Virus record (IMG/VR): IMGVR_UViG_3300042400_000593
Source: a virus
Lineage: Duplodnaviria > Heunggongvirae > Uroviricota > Caudoviricetes
DNA length: 64,000 nt
Direction: 5' to 3' (one strand)
Shown: in pieces, positions 1 to 17,956 of the stretch
How the letters are laid out: every line of letters starts with the position of its first letter
How positions within the stretch are numbered: the first letter of the stretch is position 1
Translations under genes and position numbers: made by a program
Notes under the pieces: model-generated
The model's input: only the letters and a program-made list of their open reading frames with translations
The model's database searches: none
Told to the model about the DNA's origin: nothing

Positions 1-423
1 AATTCGTTTAATTTCTAAAGTATTCAAATTTTTTGCAACCACTGTGCCTTTACTATAATTACTTACAACCTTTGCATGCGATTCTCTAAGGTATGCATAC
101 ACTCTATTGGTTATTTTATAAGATCGGCATACATCACCAGTTTTAGAATACACCATTAAGTGTAATGCTTTAATCATTTTAGGACTATTTGTGCCTTTTG
201 CTAATAATAAATGTGCTATATAATGATGCCTTGCACTTAACGTAATTAAGTTGTTAATATTATCTAATCCGCCAAATGACTTAGGAACGATATGATGAGT
301 TTCGGTGTATTTGTCATTAAGTACTAAGGTTTTACAATGCTCAATAAATGTTACATAGCGGGTTATATTATGATTGTTTGGATTTAAAGAATGTTTTAAA
401 ATATGTTGTTTATAGTCAGTCAC
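1..423 (-). CDS. HNH-family homing endonuclease (5' portion; ORF runs off the window start)
   Basis: GTG start at complement of 421-423 preceded by AAGGAA (428-433). My hand translation is open to nt 1 and contains ETHHIVPKSFGGLDNINNLITLSARHHYIAHLL, a classic HNH pattern (HH..N..N..H..H). It is absent from the supplied ORF track because it has no ATG start. Confidence 0.5.
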   Translation of the reverse strand, partial: MTDYKQHILKHSLNPNNHNITRYVTFIEHCKTLVLNDKYTETHHIVPKSFGGLDNINNLITLSARHHYIAHLLLAKGTNSPKMIKALHLMVYSKTGDVCRSYKITNRVYAYLRESHAKVVSNYSKGTVVAKNLNTLEIKRI

Positions 424-433
424 CTGTTATTCC

Positions 434-673
434 TTAAACATTGTTTAATCCGATTCTAGCATATCCTAGTGACGCGTTAAGTTCACGACGACCTTCACGG
501 TTGTCTACCTTGTTCTCTAAGATAATAAGATTATGTTGTAATTTTTGAAGATATAGCTTACCATTGCGTTCCAATCTGTCAGCCGGATAGTTTTTAATTC
601 TGTCCATATACCGCTCAATCTCGTCTTTTTTGAGCTGGATTCTATGCTCAAGATTCTCTTTAGTTTTTTTCAT
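434..673 (-). CDS. hypothetical protein (79 aa, charged, coiled-coil-like)
   Basis: ORF track; tightly packed with neighbours; no recognisable motif. Confidence 0.35.
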   Translation of the reverse strand: MKKTKENLEHRIQLKKDEIERYMDRIKNYPADRLERNGKLYLQKLQHNLIILENKVDNREGRRELNASLGYARIGLNNV

Positions 674-1109
674 TGTAAGCCTCTTTATGAAATTCTTGAC
701 AATCGTTAACTGCAGACTTCAATGCTTCTGCATAGTTTAATGTTTGTTGCTCGGACATTATAGTAGACTGCTGATATTTAAGATAACCATTAAACCACAA
801 ATTCCATGTCATTTTAATACGATGCTGAAACCCGTTAAGAAAGCTCAATGTTTCGTATGCAATACTGCTTAAAAACGAATTTTTAATTTTGTATGTGTTT
901 GAAACATCAAATGGTCTATCCCAGTACGCAGTTTTTTGCGTTGTAAATGTAGTTACAGTAATCATATTAAGGTCATCTGCCTCGACCATAAACTCAATAT
1001 TGTCATCGTCGTTGCCGCATGTGCATTGAATTTTATACATTTTACTGTTACCCCAGTCACTTGTTTTCATAATGCCTACTGCTGGAATTTGTGGTTTTAA
1101 GTCTTTCAT
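660..1109 (-). CDS. hypothetical protein (149 aa)
   Basis: ORF track; Cys cluster CTCGNDDD; start 8 nt after the folE stop. Confidence 0.45.
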   Translation of the reverse strand: MKDLKPQIPAVGIMKTSDWGNSKMYKIQCTCGNDDDNIEFMVEADDLNMITVTTFTTQKTAYWDRPFDVSNTYKIKNSFLSSIAYETLSFLNGFQHRIKMTWNLWFNGYLKYQQSTIMSEQQTLNYAEALKSAVNDCQEFHKEAYNEKN

Positions 1110-1117
1110 AACTCTCC

Positions 1118-1795
1118 TTATTTGTTTACAATACTCATAAATTCTGCACGAGTAGTTGGATCGTTTTTAAATGCACCACCTAACTTACTAGTAACAGTAG
1201 AACTGCCAGTATCTTCTACACCTCTTGCAGCAACACAATAATGTTTTGCATCAATAACTACTGCAATATTATCAGTGCCTAATATGTATTCTAATGCATG
1301 GAATACTTGTTCGGTTAATCTTTCTTGTACTTGCGGACGTTTTGCAAAGTATTCAACTACACGATTAATTTTGCTTAGTCCAAGTACAACCTCGTTTGGA
1401 ATATAACCAACTGTTGCAAAGCCGTCAATTACAACTCCGTGATGTTCACAATTACTTTGTATGTTTACATTTCTTTCCACAACAATTTCATTGTAGCCCA
1501 TTTTGTTTTTAATAGTAGTACACTTTGGAAAGTTTTCTTCTTTAAGTCCAAAATATATTTCATTTGTGTACATTTTAGCCATTCGATTTGGTGTTTCTGC
1601 TAAACTATCATCTGTTAAGTCCATTCCTAATGTTGACCATATTGTTGTAAATGCGTTTTCAATAATGTCAATTTTTGTTTTATTATCAACTACTAGGGCT
1701 GTATTATTAATCGGAGTTTCGACTCCTTTACTAATTAAATATTCTCTTACTCGTTTACCTAACGCTGGATCTGTTTTAGTTTTATCAAAGCTCAT
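1118..1795 (-). CDS. folE: GTP cyclohydrolase I (FolE type I)
   Basis: Motifs NCEHHGVVIDGFATVGYIP and HYCVAARGV correspond to the FolE zinc/active-site motifs (CEHH ... HxCMxxRGV); size 225 aa. Confidence 0.85.
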   Translation of the reverse strand: MSFDKTKTDPALGKRVREYLISKGVETPINNTALVVDNKTKIDIIENAFTTIWSTLGMDLTDDSLAETPNRMAKMYTNEIYFGLKEENFPKCTTIKNKMGYNEIVVERNVNIQSNCEHHGVVIDGFATVGYIPNEVVLGLSKINRVVEYFAKRPQVQERLTEQVFHALEYILGTDNIAVVIDAKHYCVAARGVEDTGSSTVTSKLGGAFKNDPTTRAEFMSIVNK

Positions 1796-1809
1796 TATTT
1801 TAATTCCTG

Positions 1810-2670
1810 TTATATTTGTTTGTGATTTTTAAAAGTAGGTTTATCATGTTTCCAAATTAATCCAATTTGATAGCATTGTGTAGGATTATCGCTAATATCT
1901 TGATTAGTTCGGTATTTTCCTTTAAGTTCACCTTCAAAAATTATTCTCTGTTTAGAAGGTTTATTTAATCTACCATATGTAATATTATAATTGTTTTCTA
2001 AGTAAAAGTCAACATCTTTTTTAGATAAAAAATATTCAACATTGTTAATTATACACCATTTATACCCTTTAGTTGCAGATCTACCATACATGCCATTATT
2101 AGTACCTACTCTTGCCATAGTAGTGTTAGCACCAATTCTTGTTTTAATACCGGTTGTAACAATAATATCATGATGACTATTAGCCTCTTGTAAATCTAAT
2201 AATTTAGATTTCTTAATAATAGTATGTTCTTTGATGTTAGTATTGTATACTGTAAATGTGTCTGTTCTTAGCCCAATGTGCGGTTGTAAGTTACGAACAG
2301 GGTTACTCCTTGCAGTTTGATGGGACACCCACCCTCTCTCACGAATATTTGTTATTTTATAGTTTCTAAATTCTAAAATTAATTTAGTCTCTAATTCTAC
2401 TGCATCTTCTTCAGATAGATTAGTGGCTACTTTAAAAATTATTGGTAATAACTGCAATCTAGTTAATTCTCTAATTGTGTTTAATTTATGTGAATTTTTA
2501 TATTTTCGTGTAGGCCGTGCTTCTTTAAGATGATCAAATAATCGATTATTTTTACCGTAACCTACATAAAATGGTTTAAATAACAGTGAACAAAATGTAG
2601 AAACATATTGACCTGGTGTTCTTGGATCTAAGTATACATAGACATAGTATATATTGTTATTAGATGACAT
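1810..2670 (-). CDS. GIY-YIG homing endonuclease (Seg-like)
   Basis: N-terminal IYYVYVYLDPRTPGQ...PFYVGYGKNNRLFDHL is the GIY-(10-11)-YIG motif. The true start is probably the internal ATG (MSSNNN...) at complement 2668-2670, which has a strong AAGGAG 14 nt upstream; the track start at 2724 lacks an RBS. Confidence 0.75.
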   Translation of the reverse strand: MSSNNNIYYVYVYLDPRTPGQYVSTFCSLLFKPFYVGYGKNNRLFDHLKEARPTRKYKNSHKLNTIRELTRLQLLPIIFKVATNLSEEDAVELETKLILEFRNYKITNIRERGWVSHQTARSNPVRNLQPHIGLRTDTFTVYNTNIKEHTIIKKSKLLDLQEANSHHDIIVTTGIKTRIGANTTMARVGTNNGMYGRSATKGYKWCIINNVEYFLSKKDVDFYLENNYNITYGRLNKPSKQRIIFEGELKGKYRTNQDISDNPTQCYQIGLIWKHDKPTFKNHKQI

Positions 2671-2892
2671 ATAAGATTCCTTACTCCTTACATAATTGAT
2701 TTTTAAAATGGGCATTCCTATCATGATTGCCCATTGTTATTTATTAGTTAAGAGTTCTTTGTCAATGTTTTTAAGTCGTCTTCTAAGTATTCTAGATATT
2801 GTGACAAACCTAACAGCATACGTTGATTGTTTGAATCGCTATGTTTAGCAATATCACGTTTTACTTGTGCAATTTTTTCTTGTAATTCTTCT

Positions 2893-3249
2893 TTAGTTAA
2901 ATCTGTCATTTTTTACCTCCGATCTTGCTATTTCTAAAAACATTTGATATTTTTCGTATGCTGCTTTAACAGTTGGATTAGAATCTCTAACATACATATC
3001 TTCATAATATTTTTTATTCCAGTCTTCGCACTTTTCAGCTTTGTCAATTAACTTTATAAAATCGTTCTCGTGTATTTTAACAGTTAATGACCGTGTAACG
3101 TTTGCTCTTTCGCTTGGTAGGTTTGATCTTGACCAATCTAACGAATAGTTATCACCTGCAGCATAAAATTGTTCAACGTCTATGCTTCGTATACCGTGTT
3201 TCTTAGCTATTGAATGTAGTTCCATTATTTCTTCCAGTAGTTTTCCCAT
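2893..3249 (-). CDS. hypothetical protein (118 aa)
   Basis: ORF track only. Confidence 0.4.
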   Translation of the reverse strand: MGKLLEEIMELHSIAKKHGIRSIDVEQFYAAGDNYSLDWSRSNLPSERANVTRSLTVKIHENDFIKLIDKAEKCEDWNKKYYEDMYVRDSNPTVKAAYEKYQMFLEIARSEVKNDRFN

Positions 3250-3755
3250 GGAAAGTCAATCCAAATCGGATCGTCTCGTTTATCAAATTCTTCAGCACAA
3301 TAATCAACATGTGCATTGCTAGCAGAATTATCAAACACTGTAGCAAATCTTACATTTTTATGCCAAACATCGTGTTTCCATCTTATAGAATCTGGTAAAC
3401 ATAATGATTGCCAATCTTCTTTAATCCAATCGAGTGTTGCACCCGAATCGTTAATATCGTCTACAATTAAAATGTTTTTAGCACGTCCGGTACTTGCTAG
3501 TTCGTCATCAGTAACACCAAATGCATCACAAGCCATCCATGCATTATGTTCATTGTCGTCTGGATGGTCACGTAAACTAACATGTAATGTTAGCATCTTA
3601 ACTCCGAGATACTGACTAAGTAAGTTAGCGGGGATAAGTCCCCCGCGTGTGATTCCGACAATGTAATCTGGTTTCCAATTAGCAGCTTGAACTTGGCGTG
3701 CTATCTCTAATGCGGCACCTTCTAATTGTGCCCAACTATATTTTACTACTTTCAT
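3225..3755 (-). CDS. xanthine-guanine phosphoribosyltransferase-like (Gpt-like, type I PRTase)
   Basis: YIVGITRGGLIPANLL and KNILIVDDINDSGATL align with E. coli Gpt GIIAVSRGGLVPGALL and FIVIDDLVDTGGTAV (PRPP-binding motif); 176 aa versus Gpt 152 aa. Confidence 0.7.
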   Translation of the reverse strand: MKVVKYSWAQLEGAALEIARQVQAANWKPDYIVGITRGGLIPANLLSQYLGVKMLTLHVSLRDHPDDNEHNAWMACDAFGVTDDELASTGRAKNILIVDDINDSGATLDWIKEDWQSLCLPDSIRWKHDVWHKNVRFATVFDNSASNAHVDYCAEEFDKRDDPIWIDFPWENYWKK

Positions 3756-4183
3756 TCGTCGTCCTTTGGTAACATGCTATCCTCATAGCAAATTGCATAA
3801 ATTGTTTTTAAATTTCCGTATGCTTTTTCTAAACCTGGATATTCGTCGCATAACTTCTTAAATGCATCCCATTCTGGAAACGCATCTATAAAAGGTCGTC
3901 CGTTCATTGCAGTTGAGTTACTCCAGCTACCGTTACTACTTAATGTACTACCTCCTATTCCGTTATATGCATAGTAATTACTTGTTAAATTAGTAGCTAT
4001 AGTATTATACCCGTATACACCATTAGAACCTGTGATAGTAATTGTATCACTTGCTGCTGCTGTTCCACTCATAACATTTGACGCCGTGTATGCCGATAAT
4101 GTACTTGCATCGAACGCCGGTATACGAACATGTGCATCTCCATCCATAGTAAATGTAATCGTATCTTTATTTGAATCTATCAT
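3752..4183 (-). CDS. hypothetical protein (143 aa, Ser/Thr/Gly/Asn-rich)
   Basis: ORF track; overlaps neighbours by 4 and 17 nt in operon fashion. Confidence 0.4.
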   Translation of the reverse strand: MIDSNKDTITFTMDGDAHVRIPAFDASTLSAYTASNVMSGTAAASDTITITGSNGVYGYNTIATNLTSNYYAYNGIGGSTLSSNGSWSNSTAMNGRPFIDAFPEWDAFKKLCDEYPGLEKAYGNLKTIYAICYEDSMLPKDDE

Positions 4184-5261
4184 ATAATTTCTCTGCGTTA
4201 AAAAACTCTTTTGTTAAATATTCTGCTTGGGTGTTTACATAATGCGCTATACTATCATAGTTTTCTATATAATAAATAATTTTATTACATAAATCATAAC
4301 TGTGCGTTTCGTAATTTTCGTAACTAATAGACCATTCTGACGGGTATTTAAAATGATACATATACATTTCTTTATAACTTAGTCTATCGGGTACCATTGG
4401 TATAGCACCAAGCAATGCGCCTTCGTAACAACTTATGCCTAGGGTTTCTTGTAAGTTAGCACTAAACACAATCTTTGCTTCGCTTAATAATTTATGATAT
4501 TCGTCTTTAGTTAGCTTCTCGTCTTGGCACACTACAAAATCGTATTGCGGTAATTGCATAGCTAATGATCTAAAAATATCAACTTGTTTTTCTGGAGCAA
4601 CCCTATGCGGAAACAATATTAGATCACGTTTTTCTGAATTTTTATAAGGAGTTAGCGTATCTTCTAAATACTCCATAGGCCAACCTGTTTTTATAATAGA
4701 CCCATCGTCGTATATTTCGTCCCAATCCTCGTCGTACCATGGATTTTCACTTGGATAACCATTTTGTATAACATTGTTAAAAAACATTCTTACGTGAAAC
4801 TCGGTAGCAAAATAGTTATGAGTGTATGCAGTGTACATACTTTTTTCAGCAAGTCTAACCCATGCGTCTTTAATATTACCTAAAAAGTCGTGTGGATCAT
4901 AACTTCCTGCGTGCCATAGACCGTGGAATGTCCAATTTAGATGTTCTAAATCGTTAATGTACTTTAATTGTATAATAGTAGGATTCCATGCATCAGTAAA
5001 TAAGAAATGATCATTAGGAGTAGTCCTGTGATAATTTTTTAAAAATCCAACAAGCTGAGAACTTTTCCATACGTTTGTGTCGACAAAGTTTAAAAATGCA
5101 CCCGGAGTTACATCGGTTGCGTTTTGTTCGCCGTCTATTTGAATTATGTTGTATTTGTCGTTAATATAATTGCTTAGTTGTTTAGGGATATGAGTGTGCC
5201 ATTGTCTAGTATATCTAGTATCTAATGGTTCTACAGGAAATATCCAAATAGTAGGTTTCAT
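4167..5261 (-). CDS. GT-B fold glycosyltransferase (GT4-like)
   Basis: C-terminal ...FSANLQETLGISCYEGALLGAIPMVPD... resembles the EX7E donor-binding motif region of GT4/GT1 retaining glycosyltransferases; 364 aa. Confidence 0.45.
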   Translation of the reverse strand: MKPTIWIFPVEPLDTRYTRQWHTHIPKQLSNYINDKYNIIQIDGEQNATDVTPGAFLNFVDTNVWKSSQLVGFLKNYHRTTPNDHFLFTDAWNPTIIQLKYINDLEHLNWTFHGLWHAGSYDPHDFLGNIKDAWVRLAEKSMYTAYTHNYFATEFHVRMFFNNVIQNGYPSENPWYDEDWDEIYDDGSIIKTGWPMEYLEDTLTPYKNSEKRDLILFPHRVAPEKQVDIFRSLAMQLPQYDFVVCQDEKLTKDEYHKLLSEAKIVFSANLQETLGISCYEGALLGAIPMVPDRLSYKEMYMYHFKYPSEWSISYENYETHSYDLCNKIIYYIENYDSIAHYVNTQAEYLTKEFFNAEKLYDRFK

Positions 5262-5317
5262 AAAATTCCTTAGAGAATGAAAGCTCCATGAGGAGCTTTC
5301 GTGGTTGAAAATAATTG

Positions 5318-5566
5318 TTATGATTTTTTATAATTTTTAGGTCTAACACCGTTTGGCCAAGGTTTATTACCTTGATATGGTTTGCGTGGACGTTTACTTG
5401 CTAAGTATGCACCATACGATTTACTATCTTTGCGATATAAATCCGATGGATCAAATTTACGTAACTCAATTCTGCAAAAGTCATGAAATGCTTCTAAATC
5501 TTCAAAGATTTTAACAACATCTGGACGTGATTCGAAGTATGAGAATGTTTTGTAATTTTTAGCCAT
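5318..5566 (-). CDS. hypothetical basic protein (82 aa)
   Basis: ORF track. Confidence 0.35.
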   Translation of the reverse strand: MAKNYKTFSYFESRPDVVKIFEDLEAFHDFCRIELRKFDPSDLYRKDSKSYGAYLASKRPRKPYQGNKPWPNGVRPKNYKKS

Positions 5567-5567
5567 T

Positions 5568-5858
5568 TTATTTTCTTCCGTTTTTTAATATAGTTTGATT
5601 AGTACGAACATTTAACGTGTGTTTTAATTCGTGTAGTTGTTGTCTAAGTTTTGTAATGTGTATCATATGCTTAGGTTTACTGTTACCTGATTGCATATTT
5701 TGTTTTTCATAATCAGTTATCTCTTGGCGTAAACGACTAATTTGTTGTTCAAGCATAGCTTTTGAGATATAATGTTTCATGCTACATATACTTAATAAAT
5801 GATCCGTTTTCACCATCTTCGGATACTTCAATCCACACTTCTTTGTGTAGATATTCAT
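5568..5858 (-). CDS. hypothetical coiled-coil protein (96 aa)
   Basis: ORF track. Confidence 0.35.
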   Translation of the reverse strand: MNIYTKKCGLKYPKMVKTDHLLSICSMKHYISKAMLEQQISRLRQEITDYEKQNMQSGNSKPKHMIHITKLRQQLHELKHTLNVRTNQTILKNGRK

Positions 5859-6115
5859 TTGTTATATTACAGTATAGATCATTACTTATCATTTCGCAAC
5901 TTTTGTTATCTAATGATAATGTTAATACGTAGTGTTTCATATTAGTTGATATTTATTATTTTAGTGAAAGTATAAATACAATATTAGTGAGATAGAACTA
6001 TGCCTAAACTCAAAACCCTTAATAGTAATTATACATGTTATTTGTGCGGTTGTCAAGCATTTTACATAAGTATTAATTCCAAAGTCTAAAAATCGATCTA
6101 AACGTATAGCTTGTT

Positions 6116-6493
6116 CTATTTCATTAGATGACCTGCGTCAGTTGGCTGGTATGTAACAATGCCATCAGATTCACCATCTTCAGATACACAGACTGTATAG
6201 TGCCTATCTCCATATTTAGGCAATAAATGATTAGTTAAAATATCACTAGCAATCATTTCGCATGATTTGTAATTTTGATCACCTGCAGTGATAAAATCAG
6301 TTAATGCCCATTTAACCAAAAAAAACTCTAATTCTCTATCTAAGTGATTAACAGAAATAGTTACTTCGATTTTAAAAATGTGACGATGTATATTTTCAAG
6401 AAATGCAATTTTAGAATCAATCAATCCTGCATTTGGGTAACAGTGCATACCTTCAAACTCTGTTCGAATTTTAATAAATGTTTGTAATTTCAT
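6116..6493 (-). CDS. QueD/6-pyruvoyl-tetrahydropterin synthase-like protein (divergent paralogue)
   Basis: TEFEGMHCYP ... NIHRHIFKIEV parallels the QueD FEAAHRL ... LHGHSFMVRLE arrangement, but the CxxxHGH box is degenerate; 125 aa. Confidence 0.45.
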   Translation of the reverse strand: MKLQTFIKIRTEFEGMHCYPNAGLIDSKIAFLENIHRHIFKIEVTISVNHLDRELEFFLVKWALTDFITAGDQNYKSCEMIASDILTNHLLPKYGDRHYTVCVSEDGESDGIVTYQPTDAGHLMK

Positions 6494-7017
6494 TTAATTA
6501 TCTTGTCGTCGTTATAGTCGGTCCAACTAGTAAACACATCTTCATTTTGCAAAACTTTTAAGTTATGTGTCCACACGCCGGGGTTAGTTGCGTTAAAATC
6601 TATGTCATCTAATTTAACCATTGTATTATAACTCCAATCTTTAATATTTGCAACCGGAAATCTAATTTGAGGAATAAAATTTTCATATGAACATAAATTA
6701 GTTTTATTATTAAAATCATTCATTGCTGTAACCGGAATATCTAATGAACAGTGTTTGCCTAATTTTAAAAAGTGCTCAATAATGTTATTCCAGTTGAGCC
6801 AGGTACCTGGTGTGTTTGGATTAAAACTGTGGTTTGCACCAAAGAAGATATGTGTAATATCTTCTTCAGTATCTAACCGGTGATGTATTGCTTCTGTAGT
6901 ATGAGCACCAACAACAAATAATGTTTTTAAACCATATGCTGGAGTATGCTCTACTTCGGTACCAACAAAAAACTTAGCAGTGTTAGTAGTTATATTGTTA
7001 TTATACTGTCTATTCAT
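6490..7017 (-). CDS. hypothetical protein (175 aa), translationally coupled to the DpdA-like gene
   Basis: Its start overlaps the upstream TGT-like ORF stop by 8 nt and its stop overlaps the QueD-like start; His-rich (HTTEAIHHRLD, ITHIFFGANH); no known motif recognised. Confidence 0.45.
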   Translation of the reverse strand: MNRQYNNNITTNTAKFFVGTEVEHTPAYGLKTLFVVGAHTTEAIHHRLDTEEDITHIFFGANHSFNPNTPGTWLNWNNIIEHFLKLGKHCSLDIPVTAMNDFNNKTNLCSYENFIPQIRFPVANIKDWSYNTMVKLDDIDFNATNPGVWTHNLKVLQNEDVFTSWTDYNDDKIIK

Positions 7018-8731
7018 CTTTAATGCTATCTTCTAGGGTAAGTAAAGTGTCTTCTTCTTCTTCAGAAAATTCAAATGCCGTCGGATCGACATTATCCTCA
7101 TCTATGTCGTTAGGATCTATATCTTCAAGTGTCCAAAACTCATTAAACTTTGTATCAGCATTGATTGTTTTCTTGCCACAATTACCACGTGTACCAGGAA
7201 TATCAATCCATAATTTGCTATATCTACTAATTAATTTCAATGCAGAACGCTTAGTTTTACTGCTAATGATTTTATCAATTATATCGCTAACATAAACTGG
7301 ATTAAATTTTTCATCAACTAACATATATGGCAAAATATTGTTATCAAATGTTTGATTTGCTCTTTGTACAGCATCAATATGACTCCATACATTATGCCCC
7401 ATTAAAATAGCGTAACTAAAACTATCCCAACTTGTTCTACCGACTTTGTTAATTTTATTCGTACTGCCCATAGTAATCCAATATTTAGGATCATTTAAGT
7501 ATAGTGGGTTTTTAAATAAGTCTTCATGATCAATGCCATCATTGTCTACTTCTGTCCAGTTAGGATCACCTGCACCGTAGATACAAATATCTTTTATTTG
7601 TACTTGATCAATAAGTGGACTTGGATTAAACACTTTAAAAATACCATCATCGATAACCGCGTCTTTAAACAGTCTAGTATCATATGCGTATTTTTTATTA
7701 TCAACACTCGGGACCATTCGATACACCCATTTAGATCTATCTTCTAATTCTGTAGTAATGTAAACCTGACCATTTGCTGTAGCCAAAAACGGACTAGCAC
7801 AATCATAACTAATAGTAAAGCTAGGATTAACATATTTACGAACTGCTCGTTGAATTATAGTTAGTAAACATGCCCATTCTAATTTACTAGTTCCTAAGAA
7901 ATGCATCCAGTCGTGCTGGCCTTCTTGAAGCATGTTATCAAATTTTAAACCAATAATGCGTTTAAGTACTAACTCGGCATCGCACATGTTTTGTCCACCC
8001 ATTGCCCAGCCATTAAATGCTTTATCACCGTAGATCTTAGTATCGCAAAACTTTTTCATACTTTGATACCATTTTTCTGCATCTTTGTGTGTTTCGCCTT
8101 GTAATACATTTAAGAATTTACAAGCACCTGTGCGATTTTGAATAAAGTATTCATTGTTAATAAATGTACCTTTAACTGCATCTTTGTAATTTCTAATACC
8201 TGTTGCTTTTCTACCAGCCGGCATACGTGCTACCCACGCAGGAATATCAAGACACATACCGTAATCCATTAACTCGTCCATCCATCGCAGTACTTGTTCA
8301 CGTTTCTTTTGTGCTTTAGGACAAGTAGGATCTTTCCAATCAGCTGGCCATACACCTTTCCCTATTTGGAAGCCTCCAGAGTCACCTAACACCCAACTAG
8401 TACTTCTATCTCTATTACGGAACATGTCTTCACTTTCGTCAAACTTATCTAAATCTAAGTTTGCATGTCCAGCTGAGTACAAGCACCATTTATAATAAAA
8501 TTCACCTTTTTCAGGTTCTAAGTAGTTAAGTCCCTCTACACCTGCTTTAAATGATGTTGGAATACGTAACGGATCAACATAATTACCATAACGTTGTTTA
8601 CCAACAAATGTTGAGTAAAACCCTGACGTTGCAGGCAAAAACACGGCATAATCCTGTTGTGTTGCTGTTAAGTTTCTATTCATGTTTTTTCCATATATAT
8701 GTTTTATTTCCGCAGTCCCAGATTCTATCAT
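7010..8731 (-). CDS. dpdA: tRNA-guanine-transglycosylase-family DNA transglycosylase (DpdA-like)
   Basis: VLGDSGGFQ matches the TGT catalytic-Asp motif LxDSGGFQ; NGWAMGG matches G(F/Y)AIGG; MHFLGTS matches YLMGVGTP. 573 aa. An alternative start is Met17 (complement 8681-8683), 2 nt after the upstream stop. Confidence 0.75.
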   Translation of the reverse strand: MIESGTAEIKHIYGKNMNRNLTATQQDYAVFLPATSGFYSTFVGKQRYGNYVDPLRIPTSFKAGVEGLNYLEPEKGEFYYKWCLYSAGHANLDLDKFDESEDMFRNRDRSTSWVLGDSGGFQIGKGVWPADWKDPTCPKAQKKREQVLRWMDELMDYGMCLDIPAWVARMPAGRKATGIRNYKDAVKGTFINNEYFIQNRTGACKFLNVLQGETHKDAEKWYQSMKKFCDTKIYGDKAFNGWAMGGQNMCDAELVLKRIIGLKFDNMLQEGQHDWMHFLGTSKLEWACLLTIIQRAVRKYVNPSFTISYDCASPFLATANGQVYITTELEDRSKWVYRMVPSVDNKKYAYDTRLFKDAVIDDGIFKVFNPSPLIDQVQIKDICIYGAGDPNWTEVDNDGIDHEDLFKNPLYLNDPKYWITMGSTNKINKVGRTSWDSFSYAILMGHNVWSHIDAVQRANQTFDNNILPYMLVDEKFNPVYVSDIIDKIISSKTKRSALKLISRYSKLWIDIPGTRGNCGKKTINADTKFNEFWTLEDIDPNDIDEDNVDPTAFEFSEEEEDTLLTLEDSIKDE

Positions 8732-10301
8732 AATTATTATTTTTCATATTTTCCCATTCGGTTTTTGATAAATCAACAACTTCTAATAATTTAGATAATT
8801 TATGTTTTTGAAATTTAATTCTACTCATTATGCGAGACGGATCACTATTTAAAAAATACCAGTAATTTGGATCAGTATCGTGTATAAATTCAAAACCAAG
8901 TTGTGTATATAAATTACCAGTTGACCATCTTCTATCTGCATATGATACAATACTACTCGGATTATGTAATTTTATAAAATGTTTAATTAATTTACTACCT
9001 GCACCAACTACTGTAGTATTCAATTTATTACAAAAGCGAATCAATTCCCACTGTGCAGCACTTGTATATCTAGCTTTTGCAAATGTAGCTAACGATACTA
9101 ATTCACCATCAAACATTGCGCCAATATTTACACTTGACGAGCAATCACCTTGAATATGATTTTCATTTAAGAAGTTACGTTTATCTGTAGTTGATACGTC
9201 TATTATACTACAGTTTCGTGCAAAAATCTTGGTTGATTTATTCAATTTATGCAATAATTTTGATTTTATAATATCAGTTTGCGTGTTCCATTCATAATCC
9301 CATATTTGTATAAGTTGAATATTTTGCTGTTCACATGCAACAGTCTTTGATACATGGTATTGTTTAGATTTTCCGTGAAGTTCGCTATGCCAAAAACTTC
9401 CATTAAACTCAATTGCAAGATTAAAATCCGGTAAAAAAATGTCAAGCTCACGTGGTGCAATGATTGTTCTATCATTTCTAATTATGTTTTGAGTGTAATT
9501 AGATAAAAAGTCAACTAAATTAGTTTCTCCGGCCGAAACATTAAATCGTTGTATATCAATACCAGCTGCAACCAATCTTTTAAGTATCGGCGTTGGAGAA
9601 CACCCTAGTTCTTCTGCAATTTGACTACATGGTTTCTTTAATGTTACATGCTGTTCTATAAGAAACTCAAGATTGTGCAATTTATCAATATTCTCATTAG
9701 TTAAATGAATATGTTTATTTGACGAAACACCAAACTTTTCAATACAAGTATTGTGACGTTTATCAATTACGTCATCCCAATTTCTATTAAGAGATGACTG
9801 ACTAATTTTTAACTTAATCATATCATTTTTAGCTGCATTATCCACACCGTACTTTTCTAAATTTCGTTGTTTGATTTTTTCTTTAATTTCTAAAGATTTA
9901 AATACGTTATCAACACCGTACTTTTCCATTGTAGCAGCATTTCGAGTTTCTCTAATAGTTTCATTGTGCATAGGATGACCGCCATACTTAGCTTGATTAG
10001 TTTGAGATTTTTTTAATAATATTGCAGGATCAGTGCCCATGCATTTAGCAGAGCACCATTCCGAATATGATTTTAAACTTTTAACAAACTTAGTAGATAG
10101 CTTTCCGCACCGGGTACAGGTTGGTACGTCAATCGTGTCATTAATAACGTGCCACAATCGTTGATGCGGAGTAGCAGTTTCGCTTAGAAAACTTGTAATG
10201 TCAATAAACTCAATAACATGTTCATCTAATATTGTACGTTTAGCAAATAATTCATTAGCAGTTGATTGCAATTGTATAGAATTATTCAACAGCTTTGTCA
10301 T
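8676..10301 (-). CDS. multidomain protein: N-terminal Cys cluster, three 22-aa K-Y-G-V-D-N repeats, Vsr/DUF559-like endonuclease core, C-terminal GNAT-like region
   Basis: ELDIFLPDFNLAIEFNGSFWHSELHG resembles the Vsr / EDxHD nuclease core (..AIE.DG.FWH..); C-terminal TTVVGAGSKL...LYTQLGFEF is GNAT-like; repeats KYGGHP../KYGVDNVF../KYGVDNAA../KFGVSS.. Confidence 0.4.
   Translation of the reverse strand: MTKLLNNSIQLQSTANELFAKRTILDEHVIEFIDITSFLSETATPHQRLWHVINDTIDVPTCTRCGKLSTKFVKSLKSYSEWCSAKCMGTDPAILLKKSQTNQAKYGGHPMHNETIRETRNAATMEKYGVDNVFKSLEIKEKIKQRNLEKYGVDNAAKNDMIKLKISQSSLNRNWDDVIDKRHNTCIEKFGVSSNKHIHLTNENIDKLHNLEFLIEQHVTLKKPCSQIAEELGCSPTPILKRLVAAGIDIQRFNVSAGETNLVDFLSNYTQNIIRNDRTIIAPRELDIFLPDFNLAIEFNGSFWHSELHGKSKQYHVSKTVACEQQNIQLIQIWDYEWNTQTDIIKSKLLHKLNKSTKIFARNCSIIDVSTTDKRNFLNENHIQGDCSSSVNIGAMFDGELVSLATFAKARYTSAAQWELIRFCNKLNTTVVGAGSKLIKHFIKLHNPSSIVSYADRRWSTGNLYTQLGFEFIHDTDPNYWYFLNSDPSRIMSRIKFQKHKLSKLLEVVDLSKTEWENMKNNNYDRIWDCGNKTYIWKKHE
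9701..9989 (-). repeat. in-frame 22-aa K-[YF]-G-V-x-N repeats (3-4 copies) inside the 541-aa gene
   Basis: KYGGHPMHNETIRETRNAATME / KYGVDNVFKSLEIKEKIKQRNLE / KYGVDNAAKNDMIKLKISQSSL / KFGVSSNKHIHL. Confidence 0.5.
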
Positions 10302-10683
10302 CTTCTTCCTGTTCTGTGGTTAAGGTTGCAAGTAGTGTAGTAACTTCTTGCAATTTAGTTTCTAAAAGTGTAATTTTTGTAGACATACCTGTAATTTGAT
10401 AACTTGTATTAACATAGTTAGCTACATAAGAATTATAGTTATAATTAGTATGTGGATCTCTATTATATCCTTCGAGAGTAGATAACCTCGATTCAAGTCC
10501 TTGCACACGTTGTTTCATGTATTCATAATCAACATAAAACTGTTCAAACGGACCAGGTGGAGTCCATACAGGAGCATCTAACTGTGCTAACATTGTTACT
10601 TTATCAAGAGATGATTTAACACTCTCGTTGTTGTTAACATAAACAATGTCTAATAATTTTAATGCTTTTCTAATATCTATCAT
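10282..10683 (-). CDS. hypothetical coiled-coil protein (133 aa)
   Basis: ORF track. Confidence 0.4.
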   Translation of the reverse strand: MIDIRKALKLLDIVYVNNNESVKSSLDKVTMLAQLDAPVWTPPGPFEQFYVDYEYMKQRVQGLESRLSTLEGYNRDPHTNYNYNSYVANYVNTSYQITGMSTKITLLETKLQEVTTLLATLTTEQEEDDKAVE

Positions 10684-11420
10684 TATTTTGTTTGTGCTGG
10701 TAATGTATAAGTATATTCTGCAATTCCGCTATCAACAACAATTTGTAATGCACCTTGATCTGCAATACGCATAGTGATGGTTCCGTCTAAATTTAAAATA
10801 CTTAATATTTGTGCTACCGGCCATGACCAAGTATTTTTTAATTTATAATCAATACCGGTATAAAATACAAAAGTACCAGCATGTGTGCTTGCATCACCAA
10901 AACTAAACACTAAATTATTATCTTCAGTCGAAACTTGGAATACTGTTTCTTCTGTGTGTGCAGCAGCTTGGAATTTTAATCGTTGCACATTAGCTGCTTC
11001 TGGTTTAAATTCGATATCGTAAACAATTTCTACTTTGTTTTTAGGTTTTTTTACTTTTGCTTCGATAATTGCGCGAGCCATAAATCTATAATCATTTTGA
11101 AAATCGCCAGCAGCATTAGTAAAGTGTAAACCTGTAGGCACATATTCTCCATCTCGGGTGTCGTATACAATATTAATAACTGCATCATTTTTATATTCTG
11201 GACATTTAAGATGTAAATCTAATTTGTTTAAATTAGGCATGCCAAATACACTTGATAAACCGTTAACTGGTGCAAATGTTTTTGCATTAAGAATTACTGA
11301 TCTATCTTCAGCCATTGAATCAACTTCAACGTAATTGTCATGTTCTGCTGCAACCTTAACTAATGGTAAAACGCCTAATGTGTGTGTATGTGCTACTAAA
11401 TCTTGTAAAAAGTCTTTCAT
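10683..11420 (-). CDS. putative sliding clamp (gp45-like processivity factor)
   Basis: 245 aa, acidic, immediately downstream of the DNA polymerase gene and with its own sigma70-like promoter; assigned by size and position, not by motif. Confidence 0.35.
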   Translation of the reverse strand: MKDFLQDLVAHTHTLGVLPLVKVAAEHDNYVEVDSMAEDRSVILNAKTFAPVNGLSSVFGMPNLNKLDLHLKCPEYKNDAVINIVYDTRDGEYVPTGLHFTNAAGDFQNDYRFMARAIIEAKVKKPKNKVEIVYDIEFKPEAANVQRLKFQAAAHTEETVFQVSTEDNNLVFSFGDASTHAGTFVFYTGIDYKLKNTWSWPVAQILSILNLDGTITMRIADQGALQIVVDSGIAEYTYTLPAQTK

Positions 11421-11440
11421 GTGTAATCTCCTAGTAATAT

Positions 11441-11469
11441 ATTATAATGTATTTGTAGTGGGTTGTCAA
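11441..11469 (-). promoter_or_regulatory. sigma70-consensus promoter upstream of the clamp gene
   Basis: Minus strand reads TTGACA-N17-TATAAT followed by AGGAG and ATG at 11420. Confidence 0.5.
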
Positions 11470-11476
11470 TTTTATT

Positions 11477-14137
11477 TTAATCAAAATCAAATAAATTGTT
11501 AAATGTGTTTTTGTCAGATGTGTTAACTAGTTTCCAGTTAAGAATTCCGATTAAGTTATCTAACTTGTTATCAATAATTGTTTGTTCCATTTCATTATGA
11601 TCAAACGGTAAGTCTTTAAACCATTGCGGTAATCGTAGTTCGTCTACTGGATATGCAACACTTGTAAACCCCAACGGATTTGGTTTAAGTTTACATACAA
11701 TTACTTTTGCACCGTCTGTAATAGACATCGAATATTTGTCACTGTACATACGTTTTAAAGTATTCCAGTTTATACTTGCTCTTACATGCCCGGGCATATT
11801 AGTTTTACCTTGTTTATCTTCTTTTGTAGCATATGAAGTAATACTGTTAGCACGTTTAGGTGAACCTTTTTCCCACCCAGGTCTAGCTTTAAATAGTAAC
11901 CTAAATTCTGTAATGTAATCTAATACAGTATCTTCACTTTCGCCTGCTAGAACCATTTGTAACACTTGTGATAAAAAATCTTGAATAAATTCCGGTGTAT
12001 CACTACGTTTTAAATCTAATCCCATAGCTTTAATTTCACCATTTTTACCATTAGTGTCTTTACGTTTACCTTCTTTATCGTATACTAATACTGCATAACG
12101 CTTTTTAGTAATAAACAACGATTTACTTCCGACGATCTCACGTCCGGCTTTAATAACTTCGCCACGCGATTTAGGACAATGGAATGCATCTAACATAAAC
12201 TGCTGGAATGTGCTATTAACTTGATCACTAATTTGATCATATAACTGAACAATAGTATCTTTAGACCATGGTAAACTACCATTATCGATATCACGTTTGA
12301 GTGTATTGTATGCACTAAAGTAACAGGAGTCAGTATCACCGTAAATAATAGCTTTACCTGTGTGATTATAATCACCGGTAATGATTTCATTTACTTTTGC
12401 AGCCATATGTTTAGCAATTTGGCGACCTACTAGCGTAGTAGATTGTCCAATGCGCTTATCAAAGAACCTACAACCTGGATTAAGAATAGCACCGTATAAA
12501 CTATTTAGGTTAATCTTCTTAACTAACTGTCTTTTATCCCAGTATTCTTCTTCAATTTTATTACCTGCGTTAATAGCTTCTTTTAGTTTTTTCTGCATAT
12601 CTTTACGTTCTGCATACCATCGTTTAAGTAAACCAGGAATAACTCCTTCTACTTCAACGGAAAAGATAGTACCATTAGCAGATAACACCCATGGTTGATT
12701 GCTTTCAAACACTAACCTGTATACTTCGGCAGCACTTAGTACATCTGTATCACCATTTTCCCAGTCAACTACTATATCAGTACCTATTTCTTCATTCATA
12801 ACAGCAGTATATTCAAGAGTACCAAATAATCCTTCCCATGCAGCGGCAAATGATTTACCTTTTGCTAGTTGCATAGAAATAAATTCATCAGTTGCAACAG
12901 GTCTTAACTGACCTACAATAGTCTCCGGACCCATATTTAATGCTCTAATAGCACTAGGATACAGAGAGTTGATATCTAGTGATCCGACCCAGTCATGAAT
13001 TCCTTCTTTTGGATATGCAACATACGCACCTGCAGCTTGAATAGGATCTTCTCTACGTCTATTAGGTACAACAAATCCTCTGTTATGTGCTTCGTTAATA
13101 ATAGCTTGTTCTGTTACAGCAACAGCACCCATAGTAGTTTGTAGTAATACTGTATTTTCATGTGCAAGTGTGTTAGCTAAGTCAATAAATTTTAGTTTTT
13201 TGTCTAAACTATCTAATAGCATGGTATCTTGTCTATTATATTCAATAAATGTTTTAAAGTCATTGTTATATAATTGATCAAGGGTGCCTTCGTATTGTGT
13301 TTTACGGTCGCCTAGTTCATATTCTGCAATAGCATCGAGTCTAAAACTATGTCTTTCTTCATATGTGTACTTTTGATATAGCTGTAAGCTATCTAAATGT
13401 ACACGTCCTACAAAGTCATATGTTACTGATGCTTTACCGTATTTTTCATATTCACGTCTTTTTGGTAATTGATCGAATAAGCAGAACCTACGTGTATCAT
13501 CTTTTGATAATACTTTAGTAACACGATTAACTGTATATGGTATATCAAATCCTTCACTATTCCAACCACTTAAAATGTCAGCATCTTCTATTAAATTAAG
13601 AAATGTGTCTAATAATTCAGCTTCAGTTTTAAATAAAAACGTATTAGGAAACTCTTTTACTTGTTCTTCTGCTTGCTCCATAGTTAATGTCTTTGGAGGA
13701 ATAGCTAAACAGATAAGTGTTTCTAACCATTGTAAGTGTACAGCAATCGCAGTAATGGGCATAAACGCATCATCGGGCGATGCATAACCACGTTCTGGAT
13801 CAAAGTCGACCTCGATATCAAAAAACGCAACGTTTAGTTTAGGCGCGTCGTGGTTAAGATAGTGTTCTGATAAACATGCAAATATTGGATTAATATCTGC
13901 TTCAAATGTTTTACTTGTGCTATGTATAGAAAGTTCTTTTCTATACTCTTTTGTATTTCTACAAACAATTTTTGATACGGGGTCTCTGTAGATTGATTGA
14001 TATTTCCCTTTCGAGTCTTTATAATATAATGTGTGCTTTACGGGAATGTCTTTAAACTCCCGTTCGCCTTTTGAGTTTCTTTCTACAATCTTAATAACAT
14101 CGTTATTGCGATCAAAGTATCCATCTATATAACTCAT
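11477..14137 (-). CDS. family B DNA polymerase (T4 gp43-like) with 3'-5' exonuclease domain
   Basis: Exo I FFDIEVDFDPE; motif A LDINSLYPSAI; motif C IYGDTDSCYFS; 886 aa. Confidence 0.95.
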   Translation of the reverse strand: MSYIDGYFDRNNDVIKIVERNSKGEREFKDIPVKHTLYYKDSKGKYQSIYRDPVSKIVCRNTKEYRKELSIHSTSKTFEADINPIFACLSEHYLNHDAPKLNVAFFDIEVDFDPERGYASPDDAFMPITAIAVHLQWLETLICLAIPPKTLTMEQAEEQVKEFPNTFLFKTEAELLDTFLNLIEDADILSGWNSEGFDIPYTVNRVTKVLSKDDTRRFCLFDQLPKRREYEKYGKASVTYDFVGRVHLDSLQLYQKYTYEERHSFRLDAIAEYELGDRKTQYEGTLDQLYNNDFKTFIEYNRQDTMLLDSLDKKLKFIDLANTLAHENTVLLQTTMGAVAVTEQAIINEAHNRGFVVPNRRREDPIQAAGAYVAYPKEGIHDWVGSLDINSLYPSAIRALNMGPETIVGQLRPVATDEFISMQLAKGKSFAAAWEGLFGTLEYTAVMNEEIGTDIVVDWENGDTDVLSAAEVYRLVFESNQPWVLSANGTIFSVEVEGVIPGLLKRWYAERKDMQKKLKEAINAGNKIEEEYWDKRQLVKKINLNSLYGAILNPGCRFFDKRIGQSTTLVGRQIAKHMAAKVNEIITGDYNHTGKAIIYGDTDSCYFSAYNTLKRDIDNGSLPWSKDTIVQLYDQISDQVNSTFQQFMLDAFHCPKSRGEVIKAGREIVGSKSLFITKKRYAVLVYDKEGKRKDTNGKNGEIKAMGLDLKRSDTPEFIQDFLSQVLQMVLAGESEDTVLDYITEFRLLFKARPGWEKGSPKRANSITSYATKEDKQGKTNMPGHVRASINWNTLKRMYSDKYSMSITDGAKVIVCKLKPNPLGFTSVAYPVDELRLPQWFKDLPFDHNEMEQTIIDNKLDNLIGILNWKLVNTSDKNTFNNLFDFD

Positions 14138-14352
14138 CCTGCACTACCTTCACGACCAATGTCGCGATTAGTTGCATGATCGTTAATCCATGACATAAAT
14201 GCTTCTTCGTTACGTACTTTTGCAACAGCTTCATGACTGTGTACAATAATACTGCATTCGCATCTTGATAAGCATATCTCCGGACGAATACATTCCGTAC
14301 AGATTTTAAATTCTTCCATATTGTATCTCAGTTTATGTGACTTGTGGCTCAC
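14134..14352 (-). CDS. hypothetical Cys-rich small protein (72 aa)
   Basis: CTECIRPEICLSRCEC cysteine cluster; overlaps the polymerase start by 4 nt. Confidence 0.35.
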   Translation of the reverse strand: MSHKSHKLRYNMEEFKICTECIRPEICLSRCECSIIVHSHEAVAKVRNEEAFMSWINDHATNRDIGREGSAG

Positions 14353-14405
14353 AAATACCCTTTTGCAGTTTATGGCCTGCCTACCGTTCTCAATGTTACT
14401 ACTTT

Positions 14406-14660
14406 TTAAATACGTTTTGTAATGTCTAAGATTGCTTCAACTTCTTCCCAATCTTCATTATGATCTGCCCAATTACCTTTATGTGCTATCTTAATAGCTT
14501 TATTAATAACTGCAGGTTTGACTTGTAGTTCTTCTGCTACTGCTTTTACAGTATCTTTTAAACCAGCTTGTAAGTCTTCAACTTCACGTAAAACTAAAGA
14601 ACCTTCGTTGATTAGTTTTTCAAGTTTAGCTTTTTCTTCTGGACCGTATGCTCTACTCAT
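14406..14660 (-). CDS. hypothetical protein (84 aa)
   Basis: ORF track; preceded by a sigma70-like promoter and RBS AAGGAG. Confidence 0.45.
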   Translation of the reverse strand: MSRAYGPEEKAKLEKLINEGSLVLREVEDLQAGLKDTVKAVAEELQVKPAVINKAIKIAHKGNWADHNEDWEEVEAILDITKRI

Positions 14661-14693
14661 TAGTACTTCTCCTTTGTTTAATTTATGTATATA

Positions 14694-14721
14694 TTATATA
14701 TTCGTTTGTTCAGTGTGTCAA
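14694..14721 (-). promoter_or_regulatory. sigma70-consensus promoter (TTGACA-N16-TATAAT) upstream of the 84-aa gene
   Basis: Minus strand ..cagTTGACAcactgaacaaacgaataTATAATat..; located just after the terminator hairpin at 14743-14770. Confidence 0.5.
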
Positions 14722-14742
14722 CTGGCTTGGTAAAATGAAGGT

Positions 14743-14770: not shown

Positions 14771-14781
14771 AATTGTAACGA

Positions 14782-17954: not shown

Positions 17955-17956
17955 AA

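Follow-up and report, generated by a model that had tools for sequence, protein, structure and literature searches.

Few hypermodifications of purines in DNA are known. One of them is the replacement of guanine by 7-deazaguanine bases, which blunts restriction as well as some CRISPR defences. A gene island for such a replacement is proposed here in a stretch of 64,000 nucleotides (the window) from IMG/VR record IMGVR_UViG_3300042400_000593, a virus of the Caudoviricetes. The closest described systems are those of phages with the protein DpdL, which Cui, Hutinet and colleagues (2023; PMC10516641, cited here from excerpts of the text) defined by a change of the QueD motif CxxxHGH into LxxxHRHxF, and for which they proposed a decarboxylation of 7-carboxy-7-deazaguanine (CDG) to 7-deazaguanine. 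According to these excerpts, phages with DpdL carry DpdA, FolE, QueD and QueE and are without QueC, and 2'-deoxy-7-deazaguanosine (dDG) is present in the DNA of Cellulophaga phage phiST. The gp125 protein of phage ACP17 is one of the two DpdL proteins that were tried experimentally in that study. The DpdA2 phages described in the same excerpts make preQ0-derived bases via QueC, with low levels of insertion (PMC10516641). For PA5oct, a Pseudomonas jumbo phage of the genus Wroclawvirus, it was reported that the DNA resists G-site restriction enzymes and that nucleases specific for hypermodified DNA target the phage; QueE and a PTPS are the only pathway genes named in that publication (PMC12191111).

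We consider it likely that the island in the window serves to exchange guanine in the DNA of the phage itself for a 7-deazaguanine base by way of this QueC-less DpdL branch, and that it does so from within the replication module. The G+C content of the window is about 33%. The best tblastn matches of its DNA polymerase are all from jumbo phages, namely Sinorhizobium phage Phosso (50% identity), Agrobacterium phage Atu_ph07 (45%) and E. coli jumbo phages (42%). Positions 1000-11000 have no megablast match in 50,697 phage records, so that there is no close cultured relative among them, and the nearest metagenomic relative with a long contig is an IMG/VR contig of 372 kb. On these three grounds, the source of the window is an uncultured jumbo myovirus.

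The transglycosylase, DpdL and the conserved gene array

The genes on which this interpretation is built are listed below, with their position in the window, their strand and the evidence for their assignment.

7010-8683, minus strand: divergent guanine transglycosylase of the tRNA-guanine transglycosylase (TGT) fold, DpdA-like, here named DpdAx (motifs, AlphaFold2 (AF2) model with Foldseek, hhalign)
6116-6493, minus strand: DpdL-type T-fold protein of 125 aa, a QueD paralogue and predicted CDG decarboxylase (motif LENIHRHIF, homology)
1118-1795, minus strand: GTP cyclohydrolase I, FolE (Pfam GTP_cyclohydroI, 1.8e-58; NCBIfam FolE equivalog, 3.7e-89, 297.9 bits versus a cutoff of 202)
40659-41192, plus strand: true QueD, 6-carboxytetrahydropterin synthase, outside the island (Pfam PTPS, 1.8e-28; motif CKHLHGH, which fits CxxxHGH)
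4167-5261, minus strand: glycosyltransferase (GT) of the GT-B fold, GT4-like (AF2, Foldseek, EX7E motif)
3225-3755, minus strand: type I purine phosphoribosyltransferase (PRTase), Gpt-like (Pfam Pribosyltran, PF00156, 2e-16, above cutoff)
6490-7017, minus strand: 175-aa protein encoded directly downstream of DpdAx (35 of 35 related loci)
11477-14137, minus strand: DNA polymerase, T4-type family B (tblastn)

DpdAx was listed as an open reading frame (ORF) of 573 aa at 7010-8731. Its homologues begin at M17, and the true start is therefore probably this methionine, at position 8683. The motifs LGDSGGFQ, MCLDIP, NVLQGE, NGWAMGG, HFLGTS and YDCASP are unchanged across 35 homologues, as are residues D117, D162, Q211, G245-G246 and D310. 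In its AF2 model, which has a predicted local distance difference test (pLDDT) score of 71, the protein adopts the (beta/alpha)8 fold of TGT: the top 50 Foldseek matches in the PDB are all tRNA-guanine transglycosylases, with E values from 1.6e-6 and a probability of 1.0. Alignment by hhalign of a diverse-family DpdAx profile with a sequence taken as that of E. coli Tgt gave Prob 88% and E 3e-6. In this alignment, the general acid/base Asp, the guanine-binding Asp, the QG and GG pairs and the nucleophile Asp stand in the same register. Sequence searches of the PDB with DpdAx, as a single sequence and as a profile, gave nothing significant, and its C-terminal 230 residues have no recognisable relative. 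A hidden Markov model (HMM) of the diverse family weakly detects the DpdA2-like gp123 of ACP17, at 37.7 bits, and structural neighbours in BFVD include protein R9TGF0 of Vibrio phage nt-1 (Foldseek, 1.7e-8). DpdAx is therefore probably a distant, long-form relative of DpdA2. A low-diversity DpdAx alignment gave no hhalign signal with gp123, nor with a 447-aa protein of Synechococcus phage BUCT-ZZ01, which turned out to be a second GT-like protein. No match to DpdAx was found in the first 50 kb of Campylobacter phage CP220, a DpdA3 phage, which was the part scanned.

The DpdAx family has more than 7,600 metagenome homologues, which form 932 clusters at 50% identity, and no other protein of the island is as strongly conserved as DpdAx (65-93% identity for its top matches). 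It is encoded together with genes for 7-deazaguanine synthesis, which are FolE and DpdL in the array, QueD in the window and a QueE-like gene in 30 of 35 relatives. The same holds for the homologue in Vibrio phage 2.275.O, which has QueF, YhhQ, QueC, an amidotransferase and FolE only a few genes away; the DpdAx clade thus also serves preQ-type pathways. Directly after the transglycosylase, this Vibrio phage has no GT but a 370-aa protein (gene 469, 10723-11835 of the fetched locus) with a weak amidoligase match of 1.8e-4, just under the Pfam cutoff; the clade thus seems to be paired there with a different tailoring enzyme. Two further features of DpdAx can be mentioned. Its C-terminus (7010-7100) has a conserved acidic tail, FxEEExxxLxxLExxxK, which might dock onto neighbouring replication proteins, and some relatives have an insertion of about 50-60 residues directly behind the DSGGFQIGKGVW loop.

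The 125-aa ORF at 6116-6493 has no Pfam PTPS match. Its LENIHRHIF fits the DpdL signature LxxxHRHxF and not the CxxxHGH of QueD, and it matches phrog_17812 at 1.2e-19. With tblastn it found gp125 of ACP17 (39% identity, 2e-12) and the BUCT-ZZ01 protein (64% identity). In an alignment of 10 DpdL sequences the motif is kept by 8 of the 9 others, PA5oct having HFH for HRH. The DpdL of phiST was not retrieved by tblastn with the window DpdL, nor with that of ACP17 even at E values up to 1. True QueD, at 40659-41192, has its best NCBIfam matches in the 6PTHBS and QueD families, both below cutoff. The gene context described for DpdL, with DpdA, FolE, QueD and QueE and without QueC, is found for the window and the 35 related loci, QueE being present in the relatives only. 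A remnant of 52 codons (5782-5940, minus strand), recognised in the alignment of 10 DpdL sequences as the C-terminus of an older allele, lies downstream of the intact gene. It is nearly identical to the DpdL C-terminus of a close relative (L004), and the intact copy is of the BUCT-ZZ01 type. It thus seems that a foreign allele has taken the place of the original DpdL in situ, with the function kept, and such a replacement, with a remnant left behind, would point to selection for DpdL function.

A scan of IMG/VR with the DpdAx family gave at least 575 stretches that encode a relative. We fetched 80 loci and counted the 35 that have at least 8 kb downstream of the DpdAx gene. The 175-aa protein, DpdL, an 82-aa protein, the GT and FolE are encoded in all 35, the PRTase and the QueE-like protein in 30 each, and a 143-aa protein in 29. 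Loci without the QueE-like gene mostly end short of its position. QueC, QueF, the amidotransferase Gat and YhhQ were found in none of the 35 fetched neighbourhoods; for QueC, the absence refers to the window and, in the related loci, to at most 10 kb of flanking sequence on either side. The order of genes is near-invariant: polymerase, clamp, DpdAx, 175-aa protein, DpdL, 82-aa protein, GT, 143-aa protein, PRTase, FolE, QueE-like gene and flap endonuclease, with FolE preceding the PRTase in one locus. The array exceeds chance, since this arrangement is seen again in each of the 35 independent loci. In the window, every gene in 434-14137 is on the minus strand, and neighbouring genes of the array often share start/stop codon overlaps.

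The GT has a well-defined AF2 model (pLDDT 90.7). Foldseek relates it to GT4 enzymes at 5e-9 to 1e-5, with glycogen synthase as the best match (5e-9), together with BshA, MshA and PglA; a pteridine (UDP-glucose:tetrahydrobiopterin) glucosyltransferase is at rank 10. The EX7E motif (E272...E280) is invariant among homologues. Pfam matches are all sub-threshold, and a PDB profile search with the family gave nothing significant. This family is present in just 22 of the 50,697 phage records, and 17 of these 22 belong to the approximately 24 records with DpdL. In six lineages the GT gene lies one or two genes from DpdA or DpdL: PA5oct (43% identity), Phosso (46%), ACP17 (34%), Xanthomonas phage X1, Burkholderia phage BCSR5 and BUCT-ZZ01, the copy of the latter being more divergent and detected by HMM. 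This co-occurrence and proximity are strong evidence, at the level of gene content, for a functional link of the GT with the DpdL system.

The PRTase contains the motif ILIVDDINDSGAT for phosphoribosyl pyrophosphate (PRPP), with the PRPP-binding loop VDDINDSGAT. Its best NCBIfam match is xanthine PRTase (6.5e-16), which at 58.3 bits versus a cutoff of 138 does not reach equivalog level. Homologues are present in the clusters of PA5oct (gp163) and BUCT-ZZ01, where the gene is annotated as xanthine-guanine PRTase. The 175-aa protein has 4510 metagenome homologues, none of which is named or has a Pfam domain, and its family profile has no match in the PDB. It is homologous to gp122 of ACP17 (27% identity, 1e-15), encoded directly upstream of the ACP17 DpdA. 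A Phosso "glycosylase" and gp164 of PA5oct were also considered as homologues and were ruled out by alignment.

Phage QueC, QueF, Gat, YhhQ and QueE sequences gave only E values above 1 in tblastn against the window. The motif SGGxDS occurs in no frame of the window, and its CxxxCxxC matches are confined to frames full of stops. In close relatives, FolE is followed by a 147-aa gene, sometimes by a 79-aa gene, and then by a gene for a 279-aa radical-SAM protein, the top five NCBIfam matches of which are all QueE models (1e-12 to 4e-10). The window has 149-aa and 79-aa genes followed by an HNH endonuclease gene that runs off position 1. Since the relatives carry the QueE-like gene at this place (30 of 35 loci), the island would extend past the left end of the window, and QueE would be missing only because of the window edge.

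These results can be set against a preliminary description of this DNA. That description had proposed a 7-deazaguanine DNA-modification island around a DpdA-like enzyme, and this is very probably correct in view of the TGT fold, the motifs, the neighbours in Vibrio phage 2.275.O and the restriction resistance of PA5oct. Its TGT-fold enzyme with intact DSGGFQ, GxAxGG and LGTS is confirmed by the invariant motifs, Foldseek and hhalign, its FolE by Pfam and by an NCBIfam equivalog match above cutoff, and its GT-B glycosyltransferase by the AF2 model, the GT4 matches and the invariant EX7E. The Gpt-like purine PRTase is upheld by Pfam, its best NCBIfam match falling below the equivalog cutoff. An operon-like array agrees with the start/stop overlaps, and its location next to replication genes with the succession of polymerase, clamp and transglycosylase in the 35 IMG/VR loci. 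The 125-aa ORF had been taken as a QueD/PTPS-like second step; the lack of a PTPS match and the DpdL signature contradict this. The absence of QueC and QueE from the window was found again by tblastn and motif scan. As to the suggestion that both are elsewhere, it probably holds for QueE, for which relatives have a QueE-like gene beyond the edge; the absence of QueC is expected of the DpdL branch. The "non-canonical composition" of the island was thus largely an artefact of the mistaken QueD call and of the window edge, and the DpdL branch had already been described in 2023 (excerpts of PMC10516641). Co-occurrence gives good support to the view that the GT and the PRTase are parts of the system. 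Neither is mentioned in the deazaguanine literature searched, and no paper found there reports the link of the GT with DpdL.

Proposed pathway and competing explanations

We propose the following pathway. FolE would convert GTP into dihydroneopterin triphosphate, from which point QueD would make 6-carboxytetrahydropterin, and a QueE-like radical-SAM enzyme, whose gene would lie just past the left end behind the inserted HNH endonuclease gene, would make CDG. DpdL could then convert CDG into 7-deazaguanine by its predicted decarboxylation. DpdAx would exchange guanine in double-stranded phage DNA for 7-deazaguanine, by a two-aspartate mechanism as in TGT and DpdA. In its simplest role, the Gpt-like PRTase would return the released guanine to GMP and hence to GTP, the precursor of the pathway. 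The GT4 enzyme is taken as an integral component because it is inherited with DpdL across unrelated phage lineages; it may glycosylate the deazapurine or the modified DNA, or act in a step beyond DpdL and DpdA. The modification would shield phage DNA from restriction and other DNA-targeting defences. The data themselves establish which genes are there, their folds and catalytic motifs, their synteny and co-occurrence, and the lack of QueC, QueF and the amidotransferase from the window and from the fetched neighbourhoods of related loci. From these we infer that DNA and not tRNA is the substrate, that CDG is decarboxylated, which base is inserted, and what the PRTase, the GT and the 175-aa protein do.

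Several points weigh against this scheme. DpdL together with DpdA, either from phiST or from ACP17, gave no dDG in E. coli, and other unknown enzymes were suggested; the decarboxylase activity is a prediction even for the founding members of the family (both from excerpts of PMC10516641). DpdAx has no match in Pfam (PF01702 included), PHROG, NCBIfam or PADLOC, so that no curated TGT or DpdA model fits it, and the pLDDT of its model is only 71. The Zn-binding CxCxxC...H subdomain of TGT was not found in its sequence, and the region of Tgt aligned by hhalign ends at residue 300, immediately ahead of this motif. The QueE-like gene of this phage is deduced from relatives. The absence of QueC covers the window and flanks only, in a class of genomes of roughly 370 kb. 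A universally co-inherited GT is left unexplained if the end product is plain dDG.

The fold and catalytic motifs of DpdAx are those of tRNA-guanine transglycosylases, and tRNA-related genes are common in jumbo phages. The enzyme might thus modify phage or host tRNA and boost queuosine-type modification, leaving DNA unchanged. We regard this as very unlikely. Without QueC and QueF, neither of which was found in the window or in the fetched flanks of the related loci, the pathway cannot make preQ0 or preQ1, the tRNA substrates, the C-terminal half of DpdAx is unlike the tRNA-binding Zn subdomain, and its gene is fixed between the sliding clamp and other replication genes. Moreover, DpdL-type clusters are tied to DNA modification in phiST (excerpts of PMC10516641), and the resistance of PA5oct DNA to restriction (PMC12191111) gives one indirect support for DNA, rather than tRNA, as the probable substrate of DpdAx. 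Even less credit can be given to a pterin or folate pathway in which FolE, PTPS-type enzymes and a pteridine glycosyltransferase would make glycosylated pterins as in cyanobacteria. FolE and PTPS are indeed common to pterin synthesis, and UDP-glucose:tetrahydrobiopterin glucosyltransferase is the rank 10 structural neighbour of the GT, but it is one among many equally distant GT4 matches, and such a pathway leaves the TGT-fold enzyme, the QueE-like radical-SAM enzyme, the DpdL signature and the restriction resistance of PA5oct unaccounted for. More serious is a pre-replicative route of the kind known from tubercidin and toyocamycin biosynthesis. Here the PRTase would join PRPP to CDG or 7-deazaguanine, DpdL would decarboxylate the base or the nucleotide, reduction and phosphorylation of the 7-deaza-GMP thus formed would give 7-deaza-dGTP for incorporation by the phage polymerase, and the TGT-like enzyme would be an auxiliary for repair or top-up. 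FolE, QueD, QueE, a PRTase and a decarboxylase without QueC follow the logic of the tubercidin cluster (bioRxiv 10.64898/2026.04.15.718813), the island lies inside the replication module, and the PRTase occurs in the clusters of PA5oct and BUCT-ZZ01 as well as in 30 of the 35 related loci. In cells infected with Campylobacter phage CP220, ADG has also been observed in its nucleoside form (cited in the excerpts of PMC10516641). However, DpdAx is the most conserved protein of the island and its catalytic residues are intact, the best match of the PRTase is of the xanthine/guanine type, which fits guanine salvage, and the PRTase looks accessory, no homologue having been found in the fetched DpdL/GT neighbourhoods of ACP17, X1, BCSR5 and Phosso. 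For these reasons we rank this route below insertion by DpdAx, and consider it rather improbable.

For the GT, two answers appear about equally possible, and we hold each of them tentatively. It could be unrelated to guanine modification and act on another DNA base, a virion protein or the host envelope, so that the end product would be plain dDG, the nucleoside that phiST makes (excerpts of PMC10516641). The C7 of 7-deazaguanine offers no obvious handle for a sugar, a weaker GT homologue is present in five phages of Xanthomonas and Erwinia in which no DpdL was detected, and some phages with DpdL, for example RHph_I1_18, have no GT near it. Against such independence, all 35 related loci encode the GT, DpdL accompanies it in 17 of the 22 phage records that have it, and it lies one or two genes from DpdA or DpdL in PA5oct, ACP17, X1, BCSR5, Phosso and BUCT-ZZ01. 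The PA5oct cluster also holds a gene resembling nucleotide-sugar epimerases/dehydratases, glycosyltransferases that act on 7-deazaguanine bases exist in the huimycin and dapiramicin pathways of actinomycetes (bioRxiv 10.64898/2026.04.15.718813), and DpdL and DpdA alone gave no dDG in E. coli (excerpts of PMC10516641). In view of the gene content, the GT may either decorate the base or the DNA, or enable a step that DpdL and DpdA cannot perform alone. The GT and the 175-aa protein, with its homologue gp122 in ACP17, would then be obvious candidates for the enzymes lacking in the failed dDG reconstitution. The other answer, to which we give no more than tentative credit either, is that the GT4 enzyme, DpdL, DpdAx and its 175-aa partner together make a sugar-bearing 7-deazaguanine in virion DNA. 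To our knowledge, no glycosylated purine hypermodification of DNA has been described so far. If this answer is correct, such a base would be made by a very large environmental clade of jumbo phages as well as by the cultured PA5oct and ACP17, and it would account for the failure of DpdL and DpdA to yield dDG in E. coli.

Returning to the replacement of guanine by DpdAx, its wider meaning would be that a very large clade of uncultured jumbo phages has the QueC-less DpdL branch as a fixed part of its replication module. Because the DpdAx clade is invisible to current models, these phages escape annotation pipelines. The GT4 enzyme, the 175-aa protein and, usually, the PRTase provide concrete candidates for the "other unknown enzymes" behind the failed reconstitution of dDG. 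An attached sugar would make this a new class of DNA modification, with relevance to defence evasion, sequencing artefacts and enzymatic DNA labelling. PA5oct is used in phage-therapy research and, like ACP17, is in culture.

Small conserved genes, endonucleases and other features of the window

Further genes in and around the island are the following.

5318-5566, minus strand: conserved 82-aa protein encoded between DpdL and the GT (35 of 35 related loci; no family match)
3752-4183, minus strand: 143-aa protein (29 of 35 related loci; no significant Pfam or NCBIfam match)
2893-3249, minus strand: 118-aa protein (conserved in the close relatives L003-L005; no Pfam or NCBIfam match)
660-1109, minus strand: conserved 149-aa protein; in relatives, its gene comes after FolE and before the QueE-like gene (homologues in 16 of 35 IMG/VR loci and in L003-L005; no family match)
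1-426, minus strand: 5' part of an HNH homing endonuclease gene, at or just before the position of the QueE-like gene of relatives (Pfam HNH, 7.6e-5, 23.2 bits versus a cutoff of 21.4)
1810-2724, minus strand: GIY-YIG homing endonuclease upstream of FolE, not a pathway gene (Pfam LEM-3_GIY-YIG, 1.4e-13)
8676-10301, minus strand: Hef-like homing endonuclease of 541 aa between a 133-aa gene and the DpdAx gene, not a pathway gene (phrog_3339, 3.6e-126)

The 143-aa ORF had also been considered as a fragment of a dTDP-glucose dehydratase; this was rejected, the match having an E value of 0.028 in low-complexity sequence. The preliminary description had included in the island an array of several proteins without a recognisable domain. 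This stands for the 175-, 143-, 118- and 82-aa proteins, which have no family match. Two ORFs inside the coordinates given for the island (1118-10301) are homing endonucleases (phrog_3339 and GIY-YIG). Three such endonucleases, of the HNH, GIY-YIG and Hef-like types, are thus found within 10 kb of the island, with none at these positions in L004 and L005. L003 has a GIY-YIG-like gene elsewhere. The polymerase gene of PA5oct is split by a Hef-like endonuclease with which the 541-aa endonuclease shares 40% identity; the 541-aa gene is absent from its position in L003-L005. The variable spacing of genes in the IMG/VR loci suggests that homing-endonuclease insertions are frequent in this module.

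Two perfect sigma-70 consensus promoters (12/12; TTGACA, 17 nt, TATAAT) are present on the coding strand: the first lies upstream of the clamp gene (11469-11441, minus), the second in the gap downstream of DpdL (6056-6028, minus). In the scan of the window for promoters and terminators, the counts were no higher than chance. The G+C content climbs to 0.39-0.42 at about 14000-18000, versus about 0.33 elsewhere, which coincides with an 857-aa ORF (14782-17355, minus). ClpB-type domains (AAA_2, ClpB_D2-small and Clp_N) were detected in one ORF of a batch scan, probably this one. A GroES-like Cpn10 is found at 33951-34331, and DnaJ, PhoH and Band-7 domains were also detected in ORFs of the window. 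From these matches, the phage seems to carry its own chaperone set. A UvdE-type UV endonuclease (41227-42222, minus) adjoins QueD, and a short ORF (34675-35184, minus) matches the NTPase domain of DNA polymerase III alpha. Within 33951-63717 there is also a 2-oxoglutarate (2OG)-Fe(II) oxygenase with a weak match to oxidative methylation of damaged DNA, which could be relevant to DNA modification.

Relation to known systems

The bacterial Dpd restriction-modification system (bDpdA, DpdB and DpdC) resembles the island in that an enzyme of the TGT superfamily puts a 7-deazaguanine base into DNA. It differs in its preQ0 substrate, which needs QueC, and the window is without DpdB and DpdC; the window proteins have no match in the PADLOC library of defence models. 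The tubercidin clusters of actinomycetes share with the island a CDG branch without QueC, a PRTase and a decarboxylase (bioRxiv 10.64898/2026.04.15.718813), and the huimycin cluster shares a GT, which there glycosylates a 7-deazaguanine base. The likeness of the tubercidin, toyocamycin and huimycin clusters is by description. They make free nucleoside antibiotics, have no TGT or DpdA, and use a decarboxylase of the UbiD type, not a T-fold protein. The DpdA2 enzymes of Vibrio phages nt-1, VH7D and KVP40 have the TGT fold like DpdAx and are its nearest named viral structural neighbours. They are undetectable by BLAST with DpdAx, the C-terminal half of which is different and much longer, with its acidic tail.

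Among cultured phages, PA5oct has a block after its polymerase and clamp genes that is like the one described here, with gp168 (DpdAx, 38% identity), gp167 (GT, 43%), gp166 (DpdL, 27%), gp163 (PRTase, 25%) and the QueE-like gp162. All but gp162 are annotated as hypothetical, and the gene order differs slightly from that of the window. The 175-aa protein was not found in the fetched region of the PA5oct cluster, and the epimerase/dehydratase-like gp164 stands where the window has small ORFs. This gp164 has 172 aa and is encoded between DpdL and the PRTase. Its match to the N-terminal part of NAD-dependent sugar epimerases/dehydratases (6e-7) is a hint that sugar-nucleotide chemistry may be part of the PA5oct cluster. 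In ACP17, X1, BCSR5 and BUCT-ZZ01, DpdL, GT, QueE and FolE are grouped around a different transglycosylase, with QueD in ACP17, BCSR5 and BUCT-ZZ01; the transglycosylases of ACP17, X1 and BUCT-ZZ01 are related to the DpdA2 of nt-1, VH7D and KVP40. In BUCT-ZZ01, two GT-B-like genes (6361-7704 and 9352-10518 of the fetched locus) flank the DpdA2-like transglycosylase and DpdL, and a PRTase and QueE are also present.

The DpdL systems of phiST and ACP17, as far as the excerpts of PMC10516641 describe them, have most in common with the locus: FolE, QueD, QueE, a DpdL with LxxxHRHxF, a transglycosylase of the TGT superfamily, no QueC, and a place beside the DNA polymerase. ACP17 shares in addition the GT homologue (34% identity) and the homologue of the 175-aa protein. 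DpdAx differs from the DpdA2-like enzyme of ACP17, the two being mutually detectable only by the diverse-family HMM at 37.7 bits. The window also adds a PRTase, and the same excerpts mention neither a PRTase nor, as components of the pathway, the GT or the 175-aa protein. What is new here compared with these systems is a very large clade of transglycosylases invisible to current models, and the tight association of the GT4 enzyme, the 175-aa protein and the PRTase with DpdL.

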